Below, piece after piece: positions 23,301-64,000 of a stretch of DNA of 64,000 nt. A program made the translations under genes and the position numbers. The stretch is taken from positions 18,628,946 through 18,692,945 of the forward strand of contig NC_092647.1 in the NCBI RefSeq assembly GCF_039555335.1, written 5' to 3'. The notes beneath the pieces were generated by a model that saw only the letters and a program-made list of their open reading frames with translations, made no database searches and was not told the DNA's origin. This DNA comes from Amphiura filiformis. Its lineage: Eukaryota. The first letter of the stretch is position 1. Each line of letters starts with the position of its first letter.

Positions 23301-23908
23301 CTCTGAGGCCCAACCCCTTAGTAAGAAACCATCATCTCTGAGGCCTCAACCCCTTCTCCATCAGTAAGGACCATTGCCACACTCTTTTAGGTTCAAACCC
23401 TTGCCCCCTCAGTAAGGACCCTTGTCACACTTGTTGAGCCCCAGCCACCCTGTCGCCCTTGGTTACGTAGCCGCTTTGAGGCGCCAGCCACTCAGTAAGG
23501 ACTCTTACTACAATCTTTGAGGCCTCAACCCTTTGCCCCCCTCAGTAAGAACCCTTGTCACCCTCTTTGAGGCTCATCCCCTGCCCCCTCAGTAAGCAGC
23601 CCAGCCCCCTCAGAAAGGACCATTGCCACCTTCTTTTGGGGCCCTAACCCCTTGCTACTCTCTTGAAGCCCTATCCCCCAACCCCCTCAGAAAAGACCAT
23701 TGCCACCTTGAGGCCTCAACCACCCTTCCTACCCTCTTTAGGGACTCTTGCCACATCCCCCAGTTAAGGACCATTACCACCCTCTTTGAGGCCCAAGCCC
23801 TTACTCCCTCAGTAAGGAACCTTGCCACCCTCTTTGAGGCCTCAACCTACAGCCCCCTCAGTAAGGACTGTAGCCACCCTATTTGAGGCCCCAGCCCCTG
23901 CCCCCTTA

Positions 23909-24151
23909 GGGACCATTCACAAACACTTGTAAAGGGGCCTGATGCAAAATGAAAATTCACATTTTTCAGCTCCCCCCCCCTTTGGCCATGAAAAATGAAC
24001 ATCAATCCCATAGAAAATAGTGTGAACTCATGTTCTCTGAGAAAAATTATGGTGATTTTTTAAAGACCCCCCCTTCAGAGGGACAAACATTTTCAGGGCC
24101 CCACCACTTTTTGCATTAGCCCCCCCCATTACAAGTGTTTGTGAACGGTCC
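23909..24151. mobile_element. PIF/Harbinger-like MITE of 243 bp, inserted into the satellite
   Basis: ~40 bp TIRs (gggaccattcacaaacacttgtaaaggggcctgatgcaaa … tttgcattagccccccccattacaagtgtttgtgaacggtcc). Flanking TTA duplication at 23906-23908 and 24152-24154. The satellite unit resumes in register across the insertion. Confidence 0.65.
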
Positions 24152-26535
24152 TTAGTGGGGAACCTTGCCATCATCTTTAAGGTCCCAGCCCCCTTTACTC
24201 CCTCAGTAAGGACCATTGCCACCATCTTTGAGGCCCCACCCACTCAGTAAAGAACCTTGTCACCCTCTTTGAGGTCTCAACCACTTAGGCCTCTGGAAGG
24301 ACTGATGCCACCTACTTGAGGCCCTAGCTCCTGTCCTCTCAGGAAGGACCCTTGCCTCCCACTTTCTTTGGGGCCCCAGGCCCAATGCCTCTCAATTAGG
24401 ACCCCTGTCACCCTCTTTGAGCCCCAGCAACTCTGCCCCCTGAGTTGTCATCCTCTTTGAGGCCTCATCCCCTGTCCCCTCAGTAAACAGCCCTGAGGTC
24501 TCAACCACTTGAGCCTCTGGACGGACTGATGCCACCTACTTGAGGCCCTAGCTCCAGCCCTCTCAGTAAAGACCTTTGCCTCCCACTTTCTTTGAGGCCC
24601 CAGCCCCAATGCCTCTCATTAAGGACCCCTGTCACCCTCTTTGAGCCCCATCAACCACCCTGCCCTCTCAGTTGTCACCCTCTTTGAGGCCTCATCCCCT
24701 GCCCCCTCAGTAAGCAGCCCCTGCCCCCTCAGTAAGGGCCGGCCATTGCCACCTTCTTTGAGGCCTTGACCCAATCAGTAAGAATCACTGCTACCCTCTT
24801 TGAGGCCCTATGCCCTTGCTCCCTCAGTAAAGATCGCTGCCACCATCTTTGAGGCCATTATCTCCCTTTCCTCTTAGTAGGGACTCTTGCCTCCTTCTTT
24901 GAGGCCGCAGCCACCAAGTTAAGGACAATTGCCACCCTCTTTGAGGCCACAGCCCTTGCTCCTTCACCAAGGCATCAACCTCAACCCCTTGCCCCTCAAT
25001 AAGGATCACTGCCACCCTCTTTGAGGCCCCAGCCCCTGTCCCCTCAGTAAGGATCCTTGCCACTCTCTTTGAGACCCCAGCACCTACCCCTTAGTAAGAA
25101 ACCTTGCCATCATCTTTGAGGCCTCAACCCTCTGCCCCCTCAGAAAAGACCATTATCACTCTCTTTTAGGCCCCAGCCCCTGCCCCCTTAGTAAAGAACC
25201 TTGCCATCATCTTTGAGGCCCAGCCCCTTGCTCACACAGTAAGGAATGTTGCCACCCTCGTTAAGGTCCCATCCCACTCAGTAAGGAACCTTGCCACCTT
25301 CTTCGATGCCCCAACCCCTTGTCTCCTCAATAGGGACCATTGCCACCCTTTTAGAGACCCAGCCCCTTCCCCTTAGTAAGAAACCTTGCCATCATCTTTT
25401 GAGGCCTCAACCTCCTGCACCATCATCAGTAAGGATCATTGCCACCCTCTTTTATGCCCCAGCCCCTTGCACCCTCAATAAGGACAGTTGCCATCCTCTT
25501 TGAGGCCCCAGCCCCTCCCTTCAATAAGGACAATTGCCACCCTCTTTGCCCTTGCTCCCTCAGTAAGGACCCTTGCCACCCTCTTTGAGCCCCAGCCACC
25601 CTGTGTCCTTGGTTAAGTAGCCTTGTCACCCTCTTTGAGGCACCAGTCCCTACCCCCTTGTTAAGGACTCTTATTACCATCTTTGAGGCCTCAATCTTTT
25701 GCCCCCTCAGTGAGGATCCTTATCACCAGCTTTCAGGCACCAGCCCCTGCCTCCTCCATCAGCAGCCCCTGTCCCTTCAGTAAGGACTCTTGCTACCCTC
25801 TGAGGCATCAGCCCTCAGTAGGTACCCTTGCTACCCTCTTTGAACCCCAACCACCCTGCCCATTCAGTTATGAGCCTTGTCACCCTCTTTGAGGCACCAG
25901 CCAATACCCCCTCAGTAAGGACTCTTAATGTTATCCTCTTTGAGGCCAAGCCCTTGTCCCCTCAGTAAGGAACATTGCCACCCTCTTAGAGGTCTCAACC
26001 TCTTTCCCCCCTGAGTAAGGGCAATTGCCACCCTCTTTGAGGTCCAACCCCTCAGTAAGAAATCATCATCTTTAACGTCTCACCCCCTGCTCCATCAGTA
26101 AGGACCATTGCCACTCTCTTTTAGGCCCCAGCCCCTTGCCCCCTCAGTAAGGACCCTTGTCACCCATGTTGAGCCCCAGACCCTCAGTTAGGACTCTTAC
26201 TACAATTTTCGAGGCATCTGCCCTTTGCCCCCTCAGTAAGAACCCCTGTCACCCTCTTTGAGGCTCATCCCCTGCCCCCTCAGTAAGCAACCCCAGCCCC
26301 CTAAGGACCATTGCCACCTTCTTTTGGGGCCCTAACCCCTTGCTACCCTCTTTGAGGCCTCTAACCCTCTGCCCCCTCAGTAAAGACCATTGCCACCTTT
26401 AGGCCTCAACCACCCTTGCCACATCCCTCAGTTAAGGACCATTGCCATCCTCTTTGAGGCCCAAGCCCTTGCTCCCTCAGTAAGGAACCTTGTCAACCTC
26501 TTTGAGGCCTCAACCTACTGCCCCCCTCAGTAAGG

Positions 26536-26619
26536 CTCCCTTCAGAGGAATAAAATTTTTCAGGGCCCGCCCCTTTTTGCATTAGCCCCCCTCCATTACA
26601 AGTGTTTGTGAATACTGCC
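26536..26619. mobile_element. 5'-truncated copy (3' 84 bp) of the same MITE, in the homologous position of the duplicated satellite block
   Basis: It matches 24068-24151 and is followed by the same satellite flank (ttagtgNggaaccttgccatc…). Confidence 0.55.
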
Positions 26620-29600
26620 TTAGTGAGGAACCTTGCCATCTTCATTAAGCCCCCAGCCCCTTTGCTCCCTAAGTAAGGACCATTGCCACCATCTTTGAGA
26701 CCCCACCCACTCAGTAAAGAACCTTGCCACCCTCTTTGAGGTCTCATCCACTTTGAGCCTCTGGAAGGACTGGTGCCACCTACTTGAGGCCCTAGCCCCT
26801 GTCCTCTCAGTAAGGACCTTTGCCTCCCACTTTCTTTGAGGCCCCAGCCCCAATGCCTCTCATTAAGGACCCCTGTCACCCTCTTTGAGCCCAAGCAACT
26901 CTGCCCCTGAGTTGTCACCCTCTTGAGGCCTCATCCCCTGCCCCTCAGTAAGCAGCCCTGCAGTGCCCCCTCAGTAAGGACCATTGAGACCTTGACCCCC
27001 TCAGTAAGGATCACTGCTGCCCTCTTTGAGGCCCTATCCTCTTGCTCCCTCAGTAAAGATCATTGCCACCTTGAGGTCTCAACCACCATTGCTCTCAGCC
27101 ACCCTAGTAACGACCCGTGTCACTCTCTTTGAGCCTCAGCCACCCTAGTAAGGACCCTTGTCACTCTCTTTGAGCCTCAGCCACCCTAGTAAGGACCCTT
27201 GTCACTCTCTTTGAGCCTCAGCCACCCTAGTAAGGACCCTTGTCAGCCACCACCCTAGTAAGGACCCTTGTCAATGAGGACCATTCCTACCCTCAAGGTC
27301 CCAGCCCGACCCCTCAGTAAGGACCATTAACACCCTCTTTGAAACTCCACCCGCTCAGTAAGGACCATTACTACCCTCTTTGAAGCTCCCACCCCCTCAG
27401 TAAGGACTATTACCAACATCTTTGAGGTCTCAGTCCCATGCCCCTTCAGTAAGGACCCCTGCCACCCTTTATGAGGCCAAGTACCCTGCCCCCTAAGGAC
27501 CCTTGCCACAATCTTTGAGGCCTCAGCCCCCTAAGAAAGGAGTTACCCTCTTTGAGGCCCCTACCCCACAATCCCCCAGTAAGGACCCTGGTCACCCTTT
27601 TTGAGGCCTAGTCCCCATCACCTCAATGAGGACCCTTCCTACCCACTGAGGCCTCATCACCTGTCCCTCAGAAAGGACTATTACCACCCTCTTTGAGGCC
27701 TCGGTTTCATTCTCCTTCAGTAAGGACCTGTGCCACAATCTTTGAGGAATCTGCCCCCTCAGTAAGGACTCTTGTTACCCCTCAAAGAGGCTCCTACCCC
27801 TGACCCCCAGTAAGGACCCTTGCTACCCTTTTTGACTCCTCAGACCCCTGCCCACTCAGTAAAGACACTTGCTACCCTATTTGAGGCCCAGCCCCCTTAG
27901 TAAAAATCTTTGCTACCCTCCTTGAGGCTTCACACCATTTGTCCTCAGTAAGGACCATTGCCACCCTCTTTGAGGAATCTGCCCCCAGTAAGGACCCTTG
28001 CTACCCTTTTGACTCCTCAGACCCCTGCCCACTCAGTAAAGACACTTGCTACCCTATTTGAGGCCCAGCCCCCTTAGTAAAAATCTTTGCTACCCTCCTT
28101 GAGGCTTCACACCATTTGTCCTCAGTAAGGACCATTGCCACCCTCTTTGAGGAATCTGCCCCCAGTAAGGACCCTTGCTACCCTTTTGACTCCTCAGACC
28201 CCTGCCCACTCAGTAAAGACACTTGCTACCCTATTTGAGGCCCCAGCCCCCTTAGTAAAAATCTTTGCTAACCTCCTTGAGGCTTCACACCCTTTGTCCT
28301 CAGTAATGGCCATTGCCACCCTTTTTGAGGAATCTGCCCCCAGTAAGGATTTTTGTTACACTCCTAGAGGCTCCTACCCCCTGACCCCCAGTAAGGACCC
28401 TTGTTACCCTCTCAGACTCCTCAGACCCCTGCCTCTCAGTAAAGACTCTTGCTACCCTATTTGAGGCCCAGCCCCTGCCCCCTTAGTAAAAATCTTTGCT
28501 ACCCTCTTTGAGGCTTCACACCCTTTGTCCTCAGTAAGGGCCATTGCCACCCTTTTTGAGGAATGTGACCCATCAATAAGGATTTTTGTTACCCTCCTAG
28601 AGGCTCCTACCCCTGACCCCCAGTAAGGACCCTTGCTACCCTCTTTGACTCCTCAGACCCCTGCCCATCAGTAAATACTCTTGCTCCCCTATTTGAGGCC
28701 CAGCCCCTGCCCCCCTTAGTAAATATCTTTGCTACCCTCTTTGAGGCTTCACACCCTTTGTCCTCAGTAAGGGCCATTGCCACCCTTTTTGAGGAATCTG
28801 ACCCCTCAGTAAGGATTTTTGTTACACTCCTAAAGGCTCCTACTCCATGACCCCCAGTAAGGACCCTTCCTACCCTCTTTGACTCCTCAGACCCCTGCCT
28901 CTCGGTAAAGACTCTTGATCCCCTATTTGAGGCCCAGCCCCTGTCCCCTTAGTAAAGATCTTTGCTACCCTCTTTGAGGCTTCACACCCTTTGTCCTCAG
29001 TAAGGGCCATTGCCACCCTTTTTGAGGAATCTGACCCATCAGTAAGGATTTTTGTTACCCTCCTAGAGGCTCCTACCCCCTGGCCCCCAGTAAGGACCCT
29101 TGTTACCCTCTTTGACTCCTCAGACACCTGCCCCTCAGTAAAGACTCTTGCTACCCTATGTGAGGCTCCAGCCCCTGCCCTCTTAGTAAAGATCTTTGCT
29201 ACCCTCTTTGCGGCTTCACACCCTTTGCCCTCAGTAAGGACCATTGCCACCCTCTTCGAGGCCTCAACCCCCTGTCCCCTTAGTAAGGATCTTTGCAACC
29301 ATCTTTGAGGCCTCAGGCCCATCTCAGCCTCTCGCCTACTTAGCAAGGACCCTTGTAACCCTCTCAGGCCCCAACCCCTCATTTAATACACTTAGAACTC
29401 CCTTAGCACACCAGCCCCCTCAATTCACAGTAAGGACTGTTACCAGCCTCTTTTGAGGCCCCTACTACCTACTTTGAGGACTCAGCCCATCAGCAAGGAC
29501 CCTGGCTACCTGATTTGCTGCCTCAGCTCCCTCTTCCCATGAATTGGCAGTCTCTTTACAGGGATATACCATTCAGAATCCACACACCCCTCCCCCGACA

Positions 29601-29761
29601 CAGTCATTACAGCCGTTTATTATGTCCATCTTTATCAAGGGTACTCTAAATTTGATATTACGTAACATGTAGTCTATCTGCAATCTACCTTTTGAGGGGT
29701 GTTTATTTACTGGCAAAGATCTTGGACAGGGACCATAGGTGGTTTGAACGAGGCATCAAGG

Positions 29762-31446
29762 AGAATCAATCTTGCTTCTTGTAAAGGAAGTTGCAAGAAC
29801 AAATGGATTACACAGTGTGAGTGTGAGAATCAATCTTGATTCTTGTAAAGGAAGTTTGCAAGAACTAATGGGTTACAGTGCGAGTGTGAGAATCAATCTT
29901 GATTCTTGTAAAGGAAGTTTGCAAGAACTAATGAATTACACAGCGTGAGTGTGAGAATCAATCTTGATTCTTGTAAAGGAAGTTGCAAGAACTAATGGGT
30001 TACAGTGTGAGTGTGAGAATCAATCTTGATTCTTGTAAAGGAAGTTTGCAAGAACTAATGGATTACAGTGTTAGTGTGAGAATCAATCTTGATTCTTGTA
30101 AAGGAAGTTGCAAGACCTAATGGATTACACAACATGAGTGTGAGAATCAATCTCGATTCTTGTAAAGGAAGTTTGCAAAAACTAATGGATTACACAGTGT
30201 GAGAACCAATCTTGATTCTTGTAAAGGAAGTTGCCAGAACTAATGGATTACACAGCAAGAGTGTGAGAATTAATCTTGATTCTTGTAAAGGAAGTTTGCA
30301 AGAACTAATGGATTACACAGTGTGAGAACCAATCTTGATTCTTGTAAAGGAAGTTGCCAGAACTAATGGATTACACAGCAAGAGTGTGAGAATTAATCTT
30401 GATTCTTGTAAAGGAAGTTTGCAAGAACTAATTGATTACACAGTGTGAGAACCAATCTTGATTCTTGTAAAGGAAGTTGCCAGAACTAATGGATTACACA
30501 GCAAGAGTGTGAGAATTAATCTTGATTCTTGTAAAGGAAGTTTACAAGAACTAATTGATTACAGTGTGAGAACCAATCTTGATTCTTGTAAAGGAAGTTT
30601 GCAAGAATTAATGGATTACACAGTGTGAGTGTGAAAATCAATCTTGATTCTTGTAAAGGAAGTTTGCAAGAACTAATGGATTACACAGTGTGAGAACCAA
30701 TCTTGATTCTTGTAAAGGAAGTTGCCAGAACTAATGGATTACACAGCAAGAGTGTGAGAATTAATCTTGATTCTTGTAAAGGAAGTTTGCAAGAACTAAT
30801 TGATTACAGTGTGAGAACCAATCTTGATTCTTGTAAAGGAAGTTTGCAAGAACTAATGGGTTACAGTGTGAGTGTGAGAATCAATCTTGATTCTTGTAAA
30901 GGAAGTGGCAAGAACTAATGGATTGCACAACGTGAGTGTGAGAATCAATCTTGATTCTTGTAAAGGAAGTTGCAAGAACTAATGGGTTACAGTGTGAGTG
31001 TGAGAATCAATCTTGATTCTTGTAAAGGAAGTTTGCAAGAACTAATGAATTACACAGCGTGAGTGTGAGAATCAATCTTTATTCTTGTAAAGGAAGTTGC
31101 AAGAACTAATGGGTTACAGTGTGAGTGTGAGAATCAATCTTGATTCTTGTAAAGGAAGTTTGCAAGAACTAATGAATTACACAGCGTGAGTGTGAGAATC
31201 AATCTTGATTCTTGTAAAGGAAGTTGCAAGAACTAATGGGTTACAGTGTGAGTGTGAGAATTAATCTTGATTCTTGTAAAGGAATTTTTCAAGAACTAAT
31301 TGATTACACAGTGTGAGTGTAAGAACCAATCTTGATTCTTGTAAAGGAAGTTGCAAGACCTAATGGATTACACAACGTGAGTGTGAGAATCAATCTCGAT
31401 TCTTGTAAAGAAAGTTTGCAAAAACTAATGGATTACACAGTGCGAG
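29762..31446. repeat. Minisatellite of 59-60 bp unit (gagaatcaatcttgattcttgtaaaggaagtt(t)gcaagaactaatggattaca + a variable 8-12 bp tail), ~28 copies
   Basis: Regular tandem array. Each unit contains the 16-bp palindrome gaatcaatcttgattc. A single related unit recurs at 63935-63965. Confidence 0.95.
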
Positions 31447-31796
31447 TTAAAATTGACATTGGGTATTTTTAAAATGGAAATTTGGCACAAAAAACGAGGA
31501 AAACAATAGTATTGACTAAGTTGAAGCCCCATTCAAATACATGGAGCTAATTTCTCCACATTTTTCATGTAAAATGACCTATTTTGTCTTTATTATACAG
31601 CTTTCACAGCTTTTACAGCTCAACCACTTGCAGGCTATGTTAGCACATCTATGCTTATAACAAAGGTGCAATTTTTATGATTTTCTGAATGAGTTAATCA
31701 CTGAATGGGCCTTTAAAAAATGCCAATTTTTGTTCTTTTCATTAACCAATAAATGCCAGAGGCACACTATTTGCCCTCTACGTGCGACAAACCAAA

Positions 31797-32432
31797 ATGG
31801 CGGATTTACCCTAGCATTACACACAGGGCAATTTTGAGTTGGTACTCTTTGGGTATAATCTTTATGGCGGATTTACCATAGCATTACACACTGGGCAATA
31901 TTGAGTCGGTACTCTTTGGGTATTATCTCTATGGTGGATTTACCATAGCATTACACACTGGGCAATATTGAGTCGGTACTCTTTGGGTATAATCTTTATG
32001 GTGGATTTACCATAGCTTTACACACTGGACAATATTGAGTCGGTACTCTGGGGGTATAATCTTTATGGTGGATTTACCATAGCATTACACACTGGGCAAT
32101 ATTGAGTCGGTACTCTTTGGGTATAATCTTTATGGTGGATTTACCATAGCATTACACACTGGGCAATATTGAGTCGGTACTCTTTGGGTATAATCTTAGC
32201 GACTCAATATTGCCCAGTGTATAAATCTTTATGGTGGATTTACCATAGTGTTACACACTGGGCAATATTGAGTAGGTTCTCTTTGGGTATAATCTCTATA
32301 ATGGTGGATTTACCATAGCATTGTACACACTGGGCATTTTGAGTTGGTACTCTTTGGGTATAATCTCTATGGTGGATTTACCATAGCATTACAAAGCGCA
32401 ATTTTGAGTTGGTACTCTTTGGGTATAATCCC
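31797..32432. repeat. Tandem repeat of 66-67 bp unit (ctttatggtggatttaccatagcattacacactgggcaatattgagtcggtactctttgggtataat), ~9.5 copies
   Basis: Regular period between successive tttatggtgg motifs. One unit carries a 23-bp local inversion at 32197-32222. Confidence 0.9.
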
Positions 32433-35370: not shown

Positions 35371-35692
35371 CTCTCTAGTCCGAAGGTTCTCTAGTCAGAA
35401 GGCTCCTTAGACCGAAGGTTTGGTAGTCTGAACACGTAATTTACCATTCGCTAGTCCGAAAATCGGGTTCTCTAGTCTGAAGGTTCGCTACTCTGAATAA
35501 TAAATAAGATTCTGTAGTCCGAATATAGAATAAGGCTCACTAACCCTAACTCTAACACTAACCCTAACCCCAACCCTTATTCTATATTCGGACTAGAGAA
35601 CCTTCGGATTAGCGAACTTAATTTGATTTTTGGACTAGCGACCCTTTCAGACTAGAGAGCCTTCGGACTAGCGACCCTTCGGACTAGAGAGA
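35371..35692. mobile_element. Foldback element. Its arms are ~7 tandem 17-18 bp subrepeats (ctagtccgaaggttctc), inverted around a central (CCCTAA)n-like tract at 35536-35575.
   Basis: The left arm ctctagtccgaaggttctctagtcagaagg… is mirrored by the right arm …ccttcggactagagaaccttcggattagcg. The centre reads ctaaccctaactctaacactaaccctaaccccaaccc. Confidence 0.75.
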
Positions 35693-42339: not shown

Positions 42340-42478
42340 AAACAAGTGGCCAAGTGGATAAGGCGCTGGTCTCGTAAACCAGAGGTCCTGGGTTCAATTC
42401 CCGGGCCGGATCACTTTTCCTATTTCCTCCTTTAATCATTGCTCGATGGCGAAACTGATAAAATTGCATCATAATTTT
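42340..42478 (+). mobile_element. tRNA(Thr-like)-derived SINE copy on the plus strand
   Basis: It has a CGT anticodon-loop region and a GGTTCAATTCC T-arm, but no pairable acceptor stem. Its tail is identical to that of the minus-strand copy. The two copies lie head-to-head 130 bp apart. Confidence 0.55.
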
Positions 42479-43820: not shown

Positions 43821-44088
43821 AGCTAATCCACTTAAAGAACACACTCCCCATGTGGAAGATTTTGGAAATATTTTCCACAGTGGGAGTATAAATTACCACA
43901 TTAACTAATTCTATTTGAAACTCACCCTCCCTCTGTGGAAGATCAACATTTAAATGTTCTCAGTGGGTATATGAAATTGAAATGGAGCTGCCTATAATGT
44001 TCATTCCATTTGAAATTCATACTCCCCCTGTGGAAGATATTTCCTAAATCTTCCACAGCTGGAGTATGGATTTTAAATGGAATAGCCC
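43821..44088. mobile_element. Family H trimer copy
   Basis: Collinear with 37161-37440. Confidence 0.7.
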
Positions 44089-44435
44089 TGAGCAAGTTCT
44101 GGTTCCAAGTCCTCAATATGACACTAACTTACAACAATAAGGTGTTATTGGTGACTGGTGCATTAACACAACTATGGAAGCAACAGATCACAACCCAGGA
44201 ACACTGTCAACTGTCATACTCATGAGCATGTCAACTAAATTGTGTAGCCCCCCCCTGAGGATATATATAGATTATGCATCTAATGATATTAGTGCTTTGA
44301 AAACTTATACCCAACAACTGATGAGGAACTAGCATCATACCCCAAGTGCTTTTTATACCCTTGTGCATTTAAGGTCATTTCTAGGGTTAGGATCACTGAA
44401 CTTTGTACGAGAGAATACAAATTACAAATAGACAA

Positions 44436-44618
44436 TTGGGGAACTTCCATTTGAAATACTCCAGTTGCGGAAGATATAGGTAAAGTCATATACAGGGGGA
44501 GTATGGGGTTTCAAAATAATTAACCCTGCCCAATTCCATTTGAAAAACATACTCCCTCTGTGGAAGACTTGTTTTAAATCTTCCACAGGGGAATGCCAAG
44601 TTTCAATTGAAATAGCCT
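44436..44618. mobile_element. Family H dimer copy, followed immediately by a family S fragment at 44650-44840
   Basis: Hairpin units ttccatttgaaatactcc…ggagtatggggtttcaaaat and ttccatttgaaaaacatactccctctgtggaagac…. Confidence 0.65.
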
Positions 44619-45276
44619 ATATTGAGCCCCTCTCTCTAACATATTATCACTATGGACCACAATGGCCTCATCCCAATGGCATAGTTCAATAACCTCAATG
44701 AAACAATCAAAGTGTAAAATTTGACCTCAAGTTGCAGAGTACGAGTTTTTGTACACAAATTTTTAAAGGTCATTCAATGAATGTACAACTGTATTGGGGT
44801 TTAAGAACTGTGCCCTGATAGATGAACATGTTGTGAATCCTAGTGTTTACTCATCATTTTGGACTTTTTTAGTTATTTCCAACTAGGAATTTTCCAGGGT
44901 GTGAAATCTCGCCCTAATTCAAAAGCTTAAATGCAGCCCAAATATGAGAACGTGTCCCAAATATGAGAATGTGTCAAATATAATAGAGACAAGAATGTAT
45001 ACCATTACAATAGTGCATTGCGGGAAATTCTCAGAAAGGTCTACGCGCAAAATGTGATCCTCGGAAAACCCCAAGTTTACATCTTAATACATTTCGATTC
45101 ATTTGCATTGTAAATAACTTGGTTCTCAATATAAGACTTTGACAGGTGACAGTGACCCCGATAATGGAATGATCGCACCTTTTCTGTACAGCGGCTTTGG
45201 AGATTACTTCTTGAGTTGAACATTGAGATGATTCTCTGCTTACTCCCTCTCCTTCATTCAGAGGAATGATTGCGTC

Positions 45277-45351
45277 CTACTTATTTAGGGGATCAAAGTC
45301 CGCCAATGAGAAGTTCTCTGTTCCTAAGCTTAAGCCACGCTCAAAGCCCTC
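45277..45351 (-). CDS. Candidate terminal coding exon (EGFERGLSLGTENFSLADFDPLNK, then a stop)
   Basis: On the minus strand a strong acceptor (tctcttttttttcag|gagggc) opens a phase-0 frame that runs 24 codons to TAG. Phase 0 matches the phase-0 donors of the tandem exons upstream. The evidence is weak because it rests on a short ORF and a splice-site motif only. Confidence 0.25.
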   Translation of the reverse strand, partial: EGFERGLSLGTENFSLADFDPLNK

Positions 45352-46039
45352 CTGAAAAAAAAGAGAACAAAAAATCAGAAGCATGTCTTGAAGGCAGATT
45401 CTGTGATTTCTGCATCCTTCTTTACTTGTTCAAAATGTGGCCTTGTGTTTTTAGCTGCGAGTCCAGCTCATGCAATAGCCTTTAGTTTGTCCATTCATAA
45501 CGAATGCGCAATCGCTTGTTCACGGTTGTTTGGTGGGATCATTTATTAATTTTTCAAACAAAACATCATGTACAACCATATTTTAGGCTTAAACAGCTAA
45601 AAGTGATATCGTGCTAATGTATACAGATGCTTTTGAGTCATTCTCAACTTTCATTTCCCCTCTTTTACAAAATTATTTACTTTTATAGTATTTTTTAAAG
45701 CTTTTTCGGATATAAAATGTATATATTTATGACAAAATTGGTGGCGCTATTTAGTTACTGGAAATTACCCTTTTAAGCTTTTAATACAAATAATTCCATT
45801 TATTGTTTGATAAAATTGTTTATAAAATTTCCTTGTTGCTTGTTTCACCTATTCCAGCTGTTTTAATGGCTCTATCAATCACCTAACCCTTGCAAATAAA
45901 GAAATATGATTTAGGATAAATAGCGCCATCTATAGTTTGCATTTAGTTAATAATGAAGCCAATTCTATATACATCAAACTGCTGGTCTCCCTTGCTGGGG
46001 GCTGGATCATAAGAAGGGAATCTAACCCTTACCCTGGCG

Positions 46040-46126
46040 ATAAACTTACCTGCATTTCCTTCATCTGATTATCCATATAGAGTTGACCTGAGCTTGCAGG
46101 GGATCTGATCAGGTCTCCTGCTGCTG
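46040..46126 (-). CDS. Tandem-duplicated exon copy a (QGRPAAGDLIRSPASSGQLYMDNQMKEMQ), 87 nt, phase 0-0
   Basis: On the minus strand: acceptor cccccag|caaggg, donor gcag|GTAAGT. It has a single open frame. It differs from copy b by a 24-nt in-frame deletion. Confidence 0.45.
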
Positions 46127-46181
46127 GTCTCCCTTGCTGGGGGCTGGATCATAAGAAGGGAGTTTAACCCTAACCCTGAGG

Positions 46182-46292
46182 ACAAACTTACCTGCATTTC
46201 CTTCATCTGATTATTCATATAGAGTTGATTGTCTACATCCATGAAGAATTGACCTGAGCCTGTAGGGGATCCGAATGGGACACCTTCTGCTG
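46182..46292 (-). CDS. Tandem-duplicated exon copy b (QGRPAEGVPFGSPTGSGQFFMDVDNQLYMNNQMKEMQ), 111 nt, phase 0-0
   Basis: Acceptor …ccgtcag|caagg, donor aatgcag|GTAAGT. Only one of its three frames is open. Confidence 0.5.
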
Positions 46293-46357
46293 GTCTTCCT
46301 TGCTGACGGCTGGATCATAAGAAGGGAGTTTGACCCTAACCATGATGACAAACTTAC

Positions 46358-46464
46358 CTGCATTTCCTTCATCTGATTATCCATATAGAGTTGATTGTCT
46401 ACATCCATGGAGAATTGACCTGAGCCTGTTGGGGATCTGAACGGGTCACCTTCTGCCTCCCTTG
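46358..46464 (-). CDS. Tandem-duplicated exon copy c (…AEGDPFRSPTGSGQFSMDVDNQLYMDNQMKEMQ). It has a 4-nt deletion near the 5' end, so an alternative acceptor 8 nt downstream (ggag|gca) is needed to keep phase 0.
   Basis: The same donor CAG|GTAAGT. It has a unique open frame encoding the conserved peptide. The acceptor position is uncertain, so this may be a decaying copy. Confidence 0.4.
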
Positions 46465-46519
46465 CTGGGGGCTGGATCATAAGAAGGGAGTTTGACCCTT
46501 ACCCTGGCGATTAACTTAC

Positions 46520-46633
46520 CTGCATTTCCTTCATCTGATTATCCATATAGAGTTGATTGTCTACATCCATGGAGAATTGACCTGAGCCTGTTGGGGATCC
46601 GAACGGGTCACCTGCTGCTGCGGCTCTCCCCTG
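46520..46633 (-). CDS. Tandem-duplicated exon copy d (QGRAAAAGDPFGSPTGSGQFSMDVDNQLYMDNQMKEMQ), 114 nt, phase 0-0
   Basis: Acceptor cagcccccag|cagggg, donor aatgcag|GTAAGT. Single open frame. The intron separating it from copy c is only 55 nt. Confidence 0.5.
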
Positions 46634-47015
46634 CTGGGGGCTGGTTCCTGAGAAGGGGGCCTGCCCAAAAGGGTCGCTTGCAGCTCCACCCGACCCTGTT
46701 TAAAGAAATTTAAAGGCATAGTTGTGAACCTTTGTTTAAGTGATAACAATCAAAAATGAGTGACTTATTAAACAAATGAACATCCATTTTAGAACTCTGA
46801 TAAAATCAGAGACAAGCACAATCAGGCATGAGACTGCACTTTCCTAAAAAAACAAAAAAAACTGAAAATGCGCGTGAAATTGGGCAAAAAGTACCAAAAA
46901 CAGGCTGAAATTAAATAAAGTTGCGGAAATTTTGACTATAAAAAAAACTGAATTCAGTTTTTAAACTGAAAATTCTCATGCCTGCACAATTTTGACCTTT
47001 GCCGTTTTATCTTAA

Positions 47016-47212
47016 CCCCATAAGAACTACCTGCCGATGGGCCAAAAAGAAGTTTTCATTATCAATTGGACCAATCAGTAACATTGTTAGAATAATTTCA
47101 CCACACAAAAAAATTTGGGTGAATTATTTGCAAAACTCCATTCTGATTGGTGATTAAAATGAAAATTGACCAATCAGAGGCAATGTTAGATCGGCAGGTA
47201 GTGCTCAGGGGG
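47016..47212. mobile_element. piggyBac-like MITE (family P), ~27 bp TIR ccccataagaactacctgccgat…, with perfect TTAA duplications
   Basis: TTAA at 47012-47015 and 47213-47216. Termini begin CCC…, as in piggyBac. The interior carries paired CCAAT/ATTGG motifs (gaccaatcag / ctgattggtg). Confidence 0.7.
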
Positions 47213-47981
47213 TTAACAATGGCGAGTATCACACTGCAGCTTTCATATCTTCTTACCATAATATTTCAAGGGAAAACATAACAATGGGTAACATGAAACA
47301 TTGTTTCAACAGATTTGTAAAAAATTTTAACTTCTGACAATGAGAAAATCAAGACGGCTGGGATTAAGTTTTAAAAATAACAGGTGTGCTACAAATCACA
47401 CTTCTGGAAATGTTAAGGGGGGCTGTTAGGCATGCTATTAAATTACACTCAATAAGAAGTTTAGGAATCGTGATTTAGGAAGTGTGATATAAATAGCACC
47501 CGGCAAGGCAATTTAAAGTGTGTGATGGTGTGTGATCGCACCAGTATGCCTTAAAACTCAATCCCCGAGACAGCTTTTTCATCATGAGAAATATTGAATA
47601 TTCTTATTCAGTTGGTGTGTCTTGTCAAGAATACACACAATTTGATTGGTTTTGGAGTGTCTTATATCACACAATAGTGGATAAGTGATATTAGTCAGGG
47701 CGCGCGCCGCCACGCAACTGCTGCACGCTTGTTGCTCCTCAATGATCGCGCGATAATGCGCCGGCATCCACTACTCAAAATATTGGCCAGCCCACCCATT
47801 ATGACATGATATTGGATAGGCAAAAGACAAAATCCTATCTTTTATTCTCTAAATATTGAATGGTTTTGGTGTGGCTTTGGTTCGAGGACACCACTCATCT
47901 TAAGCAAGCAACTAAGTAAGGTGTGATACAAGACTATATTTTTCTCTCAAAACAGATTTTGTGTGTCTTGGCTATTCTTAC

Positions 47982-48514: not shown

Positions 48515-49290
48515 ATAAGTTTCATATCCACATGAGGTTTTAGTAATTTGACCACAGATGACCCCTGAGTGACCTTGGATGACCCCAAAATGACATTCCA
48601 AAATTTGGCTTGAAATGTTGACTGTACCCACCAAGTTTCATGCCCATGCGAGTTTTTAGTAACTTAACCTCAGATGACCCCTGGGTGACCTCGGATGACC
48701 CCGAAATGACCTTCCAAAAATTTGACTCTAAATGTTGACTGTACCCAGAAAGTTTCATGCCCATACAACAGTTTTTAGTAATTTGACCTCAGATGACCCC
48801 TTGGTGACCTCAGATGACCCCAAAATAACCGTCTGAAAATTTGACTCTAAATGTTAAGTGTACCCACCAAGTTTCATGCCCATACAAGTTTTTAGTAATT
48901 TGACCTCAGGTGACCCCTTGGTGACCTTGGATGACCCCGAAATGACCGTCCGATAATTTGACTCTAAATGTTGACTGTACCCACCAAGTTTCATGCCCAT
49001 ACGAAGTTTTTAGTAATTTGACCTCAGATGACCCCTTGGTGACCTTGGATGACCCCGAAATTACCTTCCGAAACTTTGACTCATAATGTTAAGTGTATCC
49101 ATCAAGTTTCATGCTCATACGAGTTTTTAGTAATTTGACCTCGGATGACCCCTAAGTGACCTCGGATGACCCCAAAATGGCCGTCAGAAAATTTGACTCT
49201 AAATGTTAACTGTACCCACCAAGTTTCATGCCCATACGACAGTTTTTAGTAATTTGACCTTAGATGACCCCTGGATGACCTCGAAAGTGA
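48515..49290. repeat. Satellite of 117-118 bp unit, ~6.6 copies (…gtttttagtaatttgacctcagatgaccccttggtgacctNggatgaccccgaaatgacc…caagtttcatgcccatac…)
   Basis: Regular period between successive tagtaatttgacc motifs. Confidence 0.9.
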
Positions 49291-52884: not shown

Positions 52885-53270
52885 GGGAGGGCGAGTTAGC
52901 GCAGCGGTAGTTCCCTCGCTTTGCACCACTGAGGTCCCGGGTTCAAGCCCCGGCGCGGCCCAAGGACTCATGTGCACTTGGTTTATCCCGATTCAATGCT
53001 CGCTCTCGCAGGTTTTCTCCGGGATCTCAGGTTTCCTCCTGTATCGCAAAAAATCGGTGATTAGTTGTTTGGTTATCAAAACTTCCTTCACCCAATGGAA
53101 TTTGGGGAGCTGCACAGATAATTGGTGGATGTTACAATCTAAATGCGGATAGGTGTGCGCCGCTCGGCAGCAACCTAGTTGATGCGATCTGATTGTGATG
53201 ATTCACCATTGCAGCGAAATTACAGCGCTTTGAGTTCTCTAAGATCTGGAGAAAGGCGCTTTATAAATCC
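52885..53270 (+). mobile_element. tRNA-derived SINE, copy B, the same family as 372-770
   Basis: Collinear alignment with copy A, including the tRNA-like head gcgcagcggtag…ccgggttcaagcccc. Confidence 0.65.
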
Positions 53271-53896: not shown

Positions 53897-54471
53897 CTGA
53901 AGAGCAGCAAAAAAGGAAAATGATAAATAAGTTATGCTACAGCTAGAAATAATAGTCAATAAGACAATTCAGCTTTACATTCCAGATTCACTGTGGATGG
54001 TTTGGGCAAATTTCAGTACACCTGAACTTTGACCTGTCAGGAAAATTGGGGTTTTTTTTACATAGTATGTAAATTGTTTTACTAAAATTTAAAAATAAAC
54101 CTACCAACAATTTTGTAATCTCATAAATAATTATTCAAAAAACTTTGAATGATAACATTATTACGCTAATAAATTATTAATTAAAGCAATTTTCCCACAA
54201 TGCACTGCAAATTTGTGATGCCGAATTGGTTTATTGCTCTACTAAATCGGTTTTTACATTTTACAACTCAACACAATTCCCACGCATCATCAAAACTTGT
54301 TAAATAATTATTTTTAGTTCTAAATGAAAATAAAATCACTTCATAATCACCATGCAAATGGAAATAGATTCAAAGCATTTTGCAGGAATTGGAACAAATC
54401 CTTGCAGTAAAGTATTTAAACTGAGCAAATGAATGCCCATCATCTCAAATTAAGAGGGCTAGAGCACTTAA

Positions 54472-54680
54472 CCACATGAGAACTACCTGCCGATTGGCCA
54501 AAAAGAAGTTTTCATTATCAATTGTACCAATCAGCAACATTGTTAGAATAATTTCACCACGCACAAAATTGGGGTGAATTATTTGCAAAGCTCCATTCTG
54601 ATTGGTGATTAAAGTGAAGATATCACGTAATTGACCAATCAGATGCAATGTTAGATCGGCAGGTAGTGCTGGGTGCTTTA
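54472..54680. mobile_element. Family P piggyBac-like MITE, copy 2, with its right end degraded
   Basis: TTAA at 54468-54471. ~85% identity to 47016-47212. Confidence 0.6.
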
Positions 54681-55556: not shown

Positions 55557-55835
55557 GTATGAGGTTTGCTTCCTATATGTGACATGATCAAGGGGAATGA
55601 GTCACATGTCGGCCCTGGTCGAAAATGAGTTTTACACATGCCTCTAAACAGGGCATTTAGAGCTTTCAGAAACTGAAAACCCCATGTTGATATGACTTTT
55701 CATTGTGAAGTTATGTCAAATTATCAATCGCTGAAAACAATATAAAACAAAACAATTTTAACACTTTCTTTGCCAATATCTCAAAATCAATATTAGCGAC
55801 ATCCGACTCATTTCCCTTGATCGTGTCACATATGA
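55557..55835. mobile_element. MITE with termini tatatgtgacatgatcaaggggaatgagtc / gactcatttcccttgatcgtgtcacatatg, a diverged member of the 3411/62423 family
   Basis: ~30 bp inverted termini. It abuts a family H copy at 55843. Confidence 0.5.
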
Positions 55836-55842
55836 CAAATTG

Positions 55843-56018
55843 GCCTATTCCAGTTGAAATCCACATACCCCATATGGAAGACATGTCCTTAATCTCTCAC
55901 ACAGGGAGTGTGAATTTCAAATGGAGCCACACAACTCCTTTGAAACGTACATCCCATGTGTGGAAGATTAAGGTAATGTCTTCCATAGGGGGTGTATGAA
56001 TTTCAATTGCATTAGCCC
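55843..56018. mobile_element. Family H dimer copy
   Basis: cctattccagttgaaatccacatacccc … gggggtgtatgaatttcaattgcattagccc. Confidence 0.7.
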
Positions 56019-56151
56019 AATGTACAAAATGTAAAGTTTGAATGCCTCAAAGTTGTTTTTTGCCTAGAAAAAGTATCAATATCATTCACCATTTTGTGCA
56101 ATTCCTTTTCTCCAATAAAGGCACCAGATGACATATTTGGTTAGTACCTCC

Positions 56152-57226: not shown

Positions 57227-57827
57227 ACATATCATTACTAAACACACATAGTAATAACATAATTGCATAATAGATACGCATAGTCTTACACCCTTTGGAA
57301 TCTATCCCAATTTGTGTGCAAGACACTGTTATTCACTCTGATATAGTTATACCAGTTTTACCCCAGTAATCAGTAAGTCCATGCTGTACAGGGTATTCTT
57401 GCAAGTAAAGGGTTATAGACCAACAATTCACAGAGGCAACAATTCATGACATTGGGTGATAGCTGACACCAGCAGCATAAGTATCAACAATTACAACTGC
57501 AATCAGTTTGTTTTCTCTCTGTCATAAGACCCTGTCACCAATTGTTTTCCATCAAATAGCAGCAATTTTGTGCTTTTCTAATGACACACCGGATCGAGGG
57601 CATTTGCAAAGCATACACGGTCATTAAATCATGCTTATGAAAGGCACACACACTAAACGTGTTTCATCAATTTGGACCTTCACTTCACAAGTAAGCTCAC
57701 CTACCCTTACAAATAAAATAAAACACAAATGAACACAAAAGCATGCCATGAATAGAATCAATGCAGGCAGACTCCAAGATTCAGTTTAGTTACATAATGC
57801 ACACCACGATCATGAATTGGGTAATTC

Positions 57828-58002
57828 CAGTTGAAATCCATACACCCCCTATGGAAGACATGTTCTTAATCTTCCACTGAAAGAGAGTGGATTCTAAATG
57901 GAGTTACCTGAATGTGCGACTACATTTGAAATCTACACTCCCAGTGTAGAAGATTAAGGTCATGTCTTCCACAGGGGGTGTATGGAATTCAACTGGAATT
58001 GC
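57828..58002. mobile_element. Family H dimer copy
   Basis: gtaattccagttgaaatccatacaccccctatggaagacatg … gggggtgtatggaattcaactggaattgcc. Confidence 0.7.
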
Positions 58003-58088
58003 CTGTTGTGATTATCTTGGGATGACGAGGAAAGTAAAAGCTGAAAAATGACAAGATTGGAGCTAGGAAATACGGATTATACTATACC

Positions 58089-60648: not shown

Positions 60649-61195
60649 ACTGGGGAGGGGGCAGTGGGGCTCATAGTGGAAACGAGGGCAAGGGGATGTG
60701 GATTTGGGGTGAATTTTCTATTTTCAGCAATTTAGTTTAAGACTCTGGGTGTAATTTTAGCCATTTCGATTTTTGATGGCCCTCAATTTCATACAAATTG
60801 GTTTAAGAAATGGTGTTTTTTCACAATTTTCTTGAAAAAGTGCCAATTTTGCATCATTTTTTTAAGCAAAATTTGCAAAATTTTCCCAAAAATTGGTATA
60901 ATTTTGGGTCCGATTTTCGTCAGATTTGGTTTAAAGTTGGGTCGTTTTTCGGAGCCCCAGCCACACATCCCCACCCAAACCAAAGTTGATAATAACCCCC
61001 CCCCCACACCCGGGTGAATAGCCCAGTAAATGTCACAGCAGTCAGTCACATCAAATAGCACCCAATCCAGATACACACAACAATAACAGGTGCACAAAGT
61101 TTGGCAAGTTAATATTGCAGTGCAGTCATGCTTTCTATTGATAAAGACATGGCTTGGTCTCGTATCACTACACATGCATGCACTATATTTACAAT

Positions 61196-61500
61196 GGGAG
61201 ATTCCAGTTAAAATACACACCCCCTGTGGGAAAAGTTGACTGCCAGCTCAATTCCAATTGCACCTAGCTGGAAATGTGAACTTACAGCTAAAATTTCATC
61301 GAAATTTATCAAATCCAGCTAAATTTAGCATAACTTTGCCTAAAATTAGACATATTTTGCTTGGAATTCCAAAATCTTCGACACCTTTTCCAATTTTTAA
61401 GGATGAATATGGTAGGATTTGGAATAATTTAGACTGCTGAATTTGGTTGGAATTTCAAAATCTTCCACAGTGGGAGTGTGTTTATCAAATGGAACAGCCC
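61196..61500. mobile_element. Family H long variant, with its internal ~200 bp homologous to 37812-38010
   Basis: Termini gggagattccagttaaaatacacaccccctgtggg … atcttccacagtgggagtgtgtttatcaaatggaacagccc. Confidence 0.6.
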
Positions 61501-61603
61501 AACACTTGGCCATGCATTTTCACTGCTATTGCTATACAGTGGTTTTTACGGGCCTTGTCAAATCCTTCAGCATATATTATACTGATGTACAGGAGTGTAT
61601 TAA

Positions 61604-61810
61604 CCCCATGACAACTACCTGCCGATTGGTCAAAAAGAAGTTTTCATTATCAATTGGACCAATCAGCAACATTGTTAGAATAATTTCACCACACAAAAGA
61701 ATTGGGGTGAATTATTTGCAAAGCTCCATTCTAATTGGTGATTCAAGTAAAGATACCATGTAATTAACCAATCAGAGGCAATGTTAGATCGGCAGGTAGT
61801 GCTCAGGGGG
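61604..61810. mobile_element. Family P piggyBac-like MITE, copy 3, with perfect TTAA duplications
   Basis: TTAA at 61600-61603 and 61811-61814. TIRs ccccatgacaactacctgccgat / atcggcaggtagtgctcaggggg. Confidence 0.7.
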
Positions 61811-61948
61811 TTAACACTAACATACATAGAGAAGTACTGGCAAATGCGAATAGCAATACACTATTACTGTGGACACACATGTTGCGTTTTTGTCTCATTT
61901 TCCGCTGAAAGTTCCAGTTTTTACCACTGAGTGTGGACTGACACTATG

Positions 61949-62132
61949 CGCTATTCCAGTTGAATTCATTACACCCCCTATGGAAGATGTTACCTGAATT
62001 TCCCACACAAGGGTGTATATTTCAAACAGAGTCACCCATTCAGGTAACTCAATTTGAAATTCACACTCCCTGTGTGGAAGATAACAGTTATATCTTCTAC
62101 AGGGGGTGTATGCATTTCAACTGGAATAGCCT
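61949..62132. mobile_element. Family H dimer copy
   Basis: gctattccagttgaattcattacaccccctatggaagatg … gggggtgtatgcatttcaactggaatagcc. Confidence 0.7.
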
Positions 62133-62422
62133 CATTGAGCATACACTGTCATGCTTGATTCATGCACTATGATGCATTTCTATTGCATTCCTATACCTTA
62201 TACTGGATCTACAAAATTATACTGTAAATACAACAGTAAATCTCATTTTGTTCACAGCACCAAACATGTCCATGAATTTTGTAAATTTGAACTAAATTTT
62301 AAACTAAAAATTAATGCGCCTTCAAACATTCTAGATTGAATAATTAATAATCACGGATGACTAAATATCTACGCTTCTACAAATCTATGTGCCACAATCA
62401 GGGTATAGGCTTGTATCATGCA

Positions 62423-63278: not shown

Positions 63279-63402
63279 TGACCCATAGATAGGTATACAT
63301 ACAAACAAACAAACAAACACAAAAGGGAAAAGGAAACAAACATGAAGTGAAAAGAAAAACATGCAAAACCAAAGATAGGTCAACATGGCACTAAGCGGCA
63401 CA

Positions 63403-63694
63403 GGCAGTTCCATTTAAAACCCACATTACCCCTATGGAAAAGTTTATAAATATCTTCCACATGGGGAAAATGATTTTCAAATGAAATGAACACATTAGGC
63501 AGCTCCGTTTGAATTTCATACACCCTCTGAAAAAGATTCCACCTGGATCTTCCACATAGGTTCGTGAGTTTGAAATCGAGCGGCCTATAATGTGTCGATA
63601 ATGTGTTCATTGCATTTAAAAATCATACTCCCCCTGTAGGAGATATTTCCAAAATCTACCACAGGGGAAGAGTGGATTTTAAATGGAACAGCCC
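63403..63694. mobile_element. Family H trimer copy
   Basis: Collinear with the trimers at 37161-37440 and 43821-44088. Confidence 0.65.
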
Positions 63695-64000
63695 AGGGTT
63701 TAGAAGGAGACAGCGAAGTACACACACTTATTCTGTAGCAATTGTTACTTTACGACGGCACTGTTTCAATAAGTTTATCAATTCAAATTGCTTGAATGTG
63801 GGCTTCAACAGATTTGTCATTGGACCCATATATATTACAAAATGTAAGGTCCTCCAGTTCCTACTTTTTCTCCTGAAATTAACAGGGTTGGTACAACATC
63901 ACATCAAGCTGATTGGAAGCTGCTATTGGGCAGGGTCAGAATTCAATCTTGATTCTTGCAGGATAAATTCACGCCAAAATTCTAACAGATTCACGCCAAA

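Follow-up and report, generated by a model that had tools for sequence, protein, structure and literature searches.

The window, the whole stretch analysed here, comprises 64,000 nucleotides of Amphiura filiformis genomic DNA (contig NC_092647.1), and the 3' end of an invertebrate CED-6/GULP orthologue, a PTB-domain engulfment and clathrin adaptor, lies on its minus strand. On the same strand, a tandem array of 4.2 units of 142–169 bp is located at 46657–45979. The first unit spans the end of the penultimate exon (exon a) and the start of the last intron, and the downstream copies (b, c, d and a truncated fifth unit, e) lie within that intron. Comparison of these copies with one another and with related genes suggests that they are probably pseudo-exons, that is, exon look-alikes in the last intron, and not an array of working exons. 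The exons of the gene recognised in the window are listed below.

63277–63073, minus strand: X1, upstream coding exon, VPPSQPPTVDLFEAAPF...ENANVP, phase 0 in, phase 1 out
53896–53813, minus strand: X2, predicted exon, SPSANVPTPASPPGRPRPHAVAASVTP, phase 1 to 1
48053–47982, minus strand: X3, predicted exon, IAPPPKSTRSRAGTTPGSIARPV, phase 1 to 1
46695–46520, minus strand: exon a, penultimate exon, 176 nt, phase 1 in, 0 out, SGGAASDPFGQAPF...GDPFGSPTGSGQFSMDVDNQLYMDNQMKEMQ
45351–45277, minus strand: terminal coding exon, EGFERGLSLGTENFSLADFDPLNK, phase 0, stop TAG

These five exons chain without phase conflict, and a partly conserved 3' untranslated region (UTR) is found downstream of the terminal exon. 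The window holds the 3' part of the gene only, the PTB and leucine-zipper exons lying beyond position 64000.

The gene is assigned to CED-6/GULP by its phmmer homologues, by their Pfam PID domain, and by the tblastn matches to its terminal exon. An exhaustive phmmer search with the 203-residue model product returned 12 matches, seven of which are proteins of 391–491 residues whose last ~110–140 residues aligned to the C-terminal part of the model; P0004 (108 aa) and P0006 (245 aa) are fragments over the same C-terminal region. Names were checked for three homologues: the best full-length match, from the starfish Asterias amurensis, is listed as uncharacterized, and the Mytilus edulis and Babylonia areolata proteins go under "PTB domain-containing engulfment adapter protein 1-like". 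The PID domain was present in all five homologues scanned. In tblastn, the Asterias, Mytilus, and Babylonia GULP-like proteins matched the terminal exon with E values of 4e-6 to 3e-5. This exon had been proposed as a candidate by an earlier reading of the letters alone (hereafter, the sequence-only reading), and it is real: EGFERGLSLGTENFSLADFDPLNK, closed by its stop, matches the GULP/CED-6 C-terminus and is conserved in a related metagenome contig, L001.

The open frame of X1 is bounded by cag/G and CAG/gtagga (the slash marks the splice site), and the orthologous open reading frame (ORF) fragments P0002, P0010, and P0016 stop at the X1 donor. X1 also matched contig L002 in tblastn (60% identity, E=3e-16). 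L002 is an ENA metagenome contig from another related animal that holds the X1 orthologue together with a zipper exon (spans 772–882 and 2706–2885); the exon ~1.9 kb upstream of the X1 orthologue matches the leucine-zipper region of Asterias GULP. Genome fragments of this animal group therefore sit in several public 'metagenome' assemblies. X2, which covers model residues 70–97, has splice consensus and a phase compatible with X1 and X3, and its region is covered by some homologue alignments only (P0003 from residue 64, others from 85–99). X2 is a prediction without orthologue DNA behind it, and further exons may lie between X1 and X2. X3 is bounded by cag/G and TGG/gtaaga, its phase fits exon a, and its APPPK..R motif aligns with the APPPKxxR of GULP homologues.

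In an alignment of the C-termini, the GDPFG of exon a falls in a DPF column that is invariant in 11 of 11 sequences, and the tail EM[KQ]xGFxxGLSxGxxDFSLxxLDPL is conserved across the junction of exon a and the terminal exon in nine homologues and the L001 orthologue. In Drosophila Ced-6, the 486-DPF, equivalent to the DPF of exon a, binds AP-2 appendages, and the conserved distal acidic, leucine-rich C-terminus binds clathrin (Jha et al.; PMC3338440). By analogy, exon a can be taken to encode an AP-2-binding DPF motif followed by a helix-like ...MKEMQ segment.

Anatomy of the tandem array

The tandem repeat itself, which the sequence-only reading had reported, is well supported. Tandem Repeats Finder (TRF) called it at 46071–46657 with a period of 166, 3.5 copies, 88% matches, and a score of 888, and the 30-mer GATAATCAGATGAAGGAAATGCAGGTAAGT has four minus-strand matches (with at most one mismatch) compared with none in 100 shuffles. 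When the array is cut at the recurring CCCTTCT, it yields units of 169, 162, 166, and 142 nt followed by the truncated fifth. The first unit consists of the 3' 138 nt of exon a and the first 31 nt of the last intron, and copies b–d comprise at most 121 nt of the 3' end of exon a plus the 31-nt stub of the intron start. The claim that the repeat derives from coding sequence rather than from an anonymous satellite is thus borne out, since the first unit lies in a conserved GULP exon. The count of four copies holds for the donor-bearing units and overlooked the fifth. The downstream units are as follows, with AG1 and AG2 denoting the first and second of two AGs that lie 7 nt apart in each copy.

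46471–46358, minus strand: copy b, 114-nt exon-like block PPAREAEGDPFRSPTGSGQFSMDVDNQLYMDNQMKEMQ, in frame from AG1 only
46464 (AG2), minus strand: copy b read from AG2, runs into TAG
46309–46192, minus strand: copy c, in frame from AG2 only (46302, 111 nt, QGRPAEGVPFGSPTGSGQFFMDVDNQLYMNNQMKEMQ); DPF changed to VPF
46309 (AG1), minus strand: copy c read from AG1, runs into TAA
46143–46050, minus strand: copy d, in frame from AG2 only (46136, 87 nt, QGRPAAGDLIRSPASSGQLYMDNQMKEMQ); DPF changed to DLI
46143 (AG1), minus strand: copy d read from AG1, runs into a stop
46049–45979, minus strand: truncated fifth unit, 31-nt intron stub plus 40 nt (pyrimidine tract, two AGs, ...GAGACCAGCAG)

The splice-like signals described by the sequence-only reading are present in each unit. 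The donor ATGCAG/GTAAGT, a perfect CAG/GTAAGT, is identical in all four full units, and 11–13 of the 17 positions ahead of the AG are pyrimidines in each unit. Every full unit has exactly one stop-free frame, at the same position relative to the donor, and the consensus peptide that had been quoted is found there. Several details of that description do not hold. The last exon-like bases before GTAAGT are 46520, 46358, 46192, and 46050, so that the junctions first placed at 46520 and 46358 are correct, whereas those at 46182, 46040, 46292, and 46126 are each off by 10 (46192, 46050, 46302, and 46136, respectively). The acceptor given for copy b, 46464, opens a 107-nt out-of-frame block with a TAG, and the 114-nt in-frame block needs 46471. 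The blocks were said to be all 87–114 nt long and in phase 0-0; block a is 176 nt long with phase 1 in and 0 out, and the AG-to-donor length of the copies is 87–118 nt. The introns between units, described as 55–65 nt, are 48 nt from the first AG or 55 nt from the second.

The apparent acceptors have a particular origin. Ahead of the copies lies a 17-nt tract, cccttcttatgatccag, identical with its AG1 in all four downstream copies, that is homologous to exon a coding sequence, cccttctcaggaaccag (Pro-Phe-Ser-Gly-Thr-Ser). The pyrimidine tract and AG of the copies are therefore recycled coding sequence. The sole branch-like YTNAY motif of the copies is separated by 9 nt from AG1 and by 16 nt from AG2; in the real exons of the gene, a YTNAY is found 24–33 nt from the AG in four of five acceptors, that of X1 being without one. 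Similarly, the inter-unit introns of 48 or 55 nt compare with 1168–9176 nt in the real introns of the gene. RNA folding of the four 55-nt mini-introns gave stabilities that are not unusual (z −0.5 to −1.8), on which account a structure-based explanation of the mini-introns was dropped.

The copies also differ in length in ways that bear on the frame. Copy b lacks 7 nt that are present in exon a and 4 nt that are present in c, d, and e, and this frameshifting 4/7-nt indel leaves b in frame from AG1 only and c and d from AG2 only. Any single AG rule therefore brings a premature stop in at least one copy, although b and d have identical sequence around both AGs. Frameshifting indels among the copies, which the sequence-only reading had regarded as speaking against coding exons, thus do occur in part, in the form of this one indel that it had missed. 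The 24-nt in-frame deletion that it had noted does exist in copy d, and its interpretation as a signature of selection on the reading frame is not upheld: the deletion sits between the 8-nt direct repeats TCAAtTCT and TCAAcTCT, so that replication slippage suffices, and a length divisible by three does not call for selection.

The fifth unit is cut after 71 nt and is followed by intron sequence that is unique within the window. Truncation of the array by a transposon insertion was considered and is unsupported, the sequence beyond the array being unique in the window. A plus-strand gene at the array was likewise rejected, a single antisense ORF being without support.

Relatives and selection on the copies

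The array position was compared with one related locus, L001, a 1639-bp contig from a short ENA metagenome assembly. It was reached when exon a and the terminal exon were searched against a protein word index, where the sole match was P0001, an ORF call on this contig, and where no annotated or transcript-derived protein of the source species was found. Neither the collections covered by this search nor those covered by phmmer yielded a transcript-derived protein from the source species or a close one. Other loci orthologous to the array were found neither in JGI metagenomes, by a protein pattern or by a 33-nt degenerate terminal-exon pattern, nor in GTDB genome contigs.

L001 contains the exon a orthologue once, then a 955-nt intron without copies of the unit, and then the terminal exon. 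Its exon agrees with exon a in acceptor phase and in donor position, with 80% nucleotide identity, and the intron falls at EMQ/EGF in both the window and L001. The terminal exon of L001 reads EGFERGLSLGTENLTLADFDPLNK up to its stop, and the alignment continues into the UTR to window position 45115. The ratio of non-synonymous to synonymous divergence (dN/dS) between the window and L001 is 0.37 for exon a alone (0.126/0.34) and 0.26 over exon a and the terminal exon together, the latter indicating purifying selection on both. The check proposed by the sequence-only reading, whether a related locus has the same number of exons, was thereby run and gave a different number, L001 having one exon and no copies in the intron. 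In addition, all nine homologues that cover the region have a single module, each matching the query in one stretch, and four Babylonia isoforms are identical in the module region. The silent divergence of copies c and d from a is 0.13–0.17, compared with 0.43 between the window and L001 species. The lack of copies in L001 and the homologues, together with this lower silent divergence, indicates that the array is specific to its lineage and younger than the split from the L001 species.

Selection on the copies was assessed from their substitutions. The 93-nt core holds 11 substitutions, 3 synonymous and 8 non-synonymous, with a neutral expectation of ~2 to 9. In neutral simulations, the open frame was retained in 66–89% of trials per copy; the open frames of the copies are therefore expected by chance. 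The family-invariant DPF is gone in c and d. The units resemble one another in a mosaic fashion: by their stubs, U1 pairs with U4 and U2 with U3, whereas by their exon cores U1 pairs with U2. In particular, b departs from a at 1 of 92 positions of the 3' exon part versus 6 of 25 stub positions (GTAAGT excluded), so that copy b combines an almost unchanged core with its 7-nt deletion and a diverged stub.

Probable pseudo-exons and the alternatives

Exon a (46695–46520) is the sole supported exon of the array and the normal penultimate exon of the gene. After the split from the L001 lineage, the last ~138 nt of exon a and the first 31 nt of the intron would have been tandemly duplicated several times. 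The copies would then have been shuffled by unequal exchange or gene conversion and would have gained indels, and the last one would have been truncated. Each copy would have inherited the donor and the open frame, its acceptor being made of former coding sequence. In the functional mRNA, as we infer it, the donor of exon a at 46520 would be joined to the terminal exon at 45351, which together would complete the EMQ/EGFxRGLSxG..DFSLxDxDPL tail, the part that is clathrin-binding in Drosophila Ced-6. This joining is favoured because it reproduces the junction of the relative and the family motif. The copies would stay behind in the last intron, which is 1168 nt long, as pseudo-exons or as decoy splice sites with perfect donors, and their sporadic inclusion, partly out of frame, is plausible. 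The four working coding exons envisaged by the sequence-only reading find no place in this account: L001 and the nine homologues are single-module, the copies are partial, their AGs and frames are inconsistent, and the DPF is lost in c and d.

Several observations weigh against pseudo-exons as the reading of the copies. The 3:8 substitution counts are too few to tell neutrality from the orthologue dN/dS of 0.26. In the 3' part of the exon, 11 of 92 columns are variable, versus 9 of 25 stub columns (Fisher p=0.013), and columns 71–144 of the unit alignment, including all four donors, are almost invariant. The 17-nt pyrimidine tract and its AG have stayed the same in four downstream copies, and the three differences of the tract from exon a are all changes to T, by which an upstream AG was removed and a YTNAY was created; these T-ward changes would look like adaptation to acceptor function. 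Perfect CAG/GTAAGT donors are hard for the spliceosome to ignore. Furthermore, L001 is a short metagenome contig, and collapse of a repeat during its assembly is conceivable.

Alternative exons are known to arise by tandem exon duplication, and the rival reading that survives best, though rather doubtful, holds that at least one copy is a real alternative cassette exon, with a joined to c or d through AG2 and then to the terminal exon. The introns would be 217 nt for a–c and 383 nt for a–d, and the isoforms would gain a module of 29–37 residues that rebuilds the ...MKEMQ/EGF junction. An intron of 48–55 nt is too short, so that adjacent units would not be spliced together. The identical donors and tracts of four units each, the lower variability of the exon part compared with the stub (p=0.013), and the three T-ward changes, which improved a pyrimidine tract made from coding sequence, all speak for such use, as does the fact that c and d are both in frame from AG2, for which the YTNAY spacing (16 nt versus 9 nt for AG1) is also the more favourable. 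These points are offset by others. With the DPF gone in c and d, the extra module would be one without known function; copy b, the best-preserved copy, would be a poison exon under the AG2 rule; the related contig has no copies, and no homologue has a repeated module. The mosaic similarity of the units suggests another cause of low variation, namely gene conversion or unequal exchange with the parent exon, itself under selection, and gene conversion from exon a explains the low variation of the 3' half equally well. A more specific proposal, that exon birth is under way, with c and/or d as sterically exclusive in-frame cassettes through AG2 and b as a poison exon tuning expression, is less likely still.

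Splicing of all four blocks consecutively, as constitutive exons of a repetitive C-terminal domain, is very improbable. An in-frame product would result if b took AG1 and c and d took AG2, and the donors are strong throughout. However, this requires a different choice of AG in the identical contexts of b and d, and it requires three introns of 48–55 nt that lack a suitably placed branch motif, whereas the other introns of the gene span 1.2–9 kb; moreover, the module is single in the relative and in every homologue, and copies c and d show a decayed DPF. The idea of an assembly artefact, or of a satellite unrelated to the gene, has hardly any standing even in a window rich in tandem repeats, because the units differ by 1–13% in the 3' part of the exon and by 10–26% in the stub and carry distinct indels, none of which mis-assembly of one exon yields, and because the first unit runs without a break into a conserved exon of an identifiable gene.

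With the copies read as pseudo-exons, the array is a neat but unremarkable case of a young tandem duplication spanning an exon–intron boundary in the last intron of a conserved endocytic and engulfment adaptor gene; such an event is of a known kind, and its mechanism is not new. For annotation, it is a place where an ab initio gene finder may be tempted to chain the look-alikes into a repetitive C-terminus found in no relative. If the copies were used, the locus would offer a dated, stepwise case of partial exon duplication making cassette or poison exons, an example of coding sequence recycled into a 3' splice site, and an example of short motifs such as DPF being multiplied or lost in the disordered tails of adaptors.

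Other repeats in the window and known systems

Apart from the array, the window contains several other repeats. One, at 22389–29320, is a GC-rich (49–54% versus 36% background) and strongly C-skewed tandem repeat of ~7 kb, with a basic period of ~48 bp and 93 copies (TRF) and higher-order periods of 88–95, 138, 177, 233, and 282 bp, some at 91–98% identity; minus-strand ORFs of 141–170 aa with a recurring ...SKRVA.VLTEG.G... peptide run through it. An adjoining satellite at 29761–31447 has a 127/65-bp period, 13–14 copies, and 86–92% identity, and another at 31797–32430 has a 65–67-bp period and ~9 copies in two adjacent blocks. A palindromic element at 35372–35687 contains a degenerate telomere-like (CTAACC)n at 35540–35577 that lies between inverted 16-bp tandem repeats, TCTCTAGTCCGAAGGT on one side and its complement TTCGGACTAGAGAACC on the other.

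Within the GULP introns, a dispersed repeat of ~205–217 bp occurs in three copies with ~89% identity (47012–47218, 54467–54670, and 61600–61816) and is probably a short interspersed nuclear element (SINE) or a miniature inverted-repeat transposable element (MITE). The X2–X3 intron also contains a 117/235-bp tandem repeat at 48517–49283 with 3–6.5 copies and 86–89% identity. Many short ORFs at 43943–44616, 55817–56046, 57761–58011, 61090–61519, 61895–62172, and 63383–63749, on both strands, share ...(I/F)HTP(P/A)VED....FHRGS..FKWN..., and the shared (I/F)HTP(P/A)VED motif indicates a dispersed repeat family. Four window ORFs that were joined, three of them with the HTP motif, had no relative among 5.8 billion proteins. 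ARAGORN and Rfam gave one tRNA-like match each on the window, a tRNA-Cys(GCA) at 52889–52961 (+) and a partial tRNA match (43 bits) at 42347–42404 (+), respectively. The ARAGORN call lies in sequence whose translation (..EPGTSVVQSEGTTA..) recurs at 269–631, and is thus more likely part of a repeat derived from a tRNA than a functional tRNA gene.

Among known systems, the locus is closest to CED-6/GULP1 itself, with which it shares the C-terminal order of a proline-rich APPPKxxR, D[LP]F motifs, one invariant DPF, and EM[KQ]xGFxxGLSxGxxDFSLxxLDPL at the end; unlike the window locus, the homologues are without tandem copies of the DPF exon.

Tandemly duplicated exons serving as alternative or mutually exclusive exons were reportedly surveyed by Kondrashov and Koonin in 2001 and by Letunic, Copley and Bork in 2002. 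The array resembles them in its head-to-tail coding copies, splice-like signals, and compatible phases, and the short spacing of its units could likewise enforce exclusivity. It differs in that its unit consists of part of an exon and 31 nt of intron instead of a complete exon with its two flanks, and in that the acceptor of the copies is recycled coding sequence and not the original one. In addition, the copies are not interchangeable in phase under one splicing rule, and they are absent from the related species represented by L001.

Intron gain by tandem duplication of an AGGT-containing segment is said to go back to a model of Rogers in 1989 and to have been taken up by Hellsten et al. in 2011. 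Here too, duplication across the exon–intron boundary makes GT...AG pairs, and coding sequence turns intron-like. The model has splicing take out exactly one copy, which recovers the original mRNA. At the array, splicing from the donor of a to an AG of b adds 38 codons or a stop, so that the ancestral mRNA is not restored; only the skipping of all copies restores it.

Finally, the array can be compared with an intronic minisatellite or pseudo-exon array, which it resembles in its head-to-tail units of 142–169 bp, truncated end, slippage indels, mosaic similarity, and confinement to one lineage. Its units differ from those of a minisatellite in the perfect donors and the intact frame taken from a functional exon, features that make them potential decoys or poison exons rather than inert DNA.

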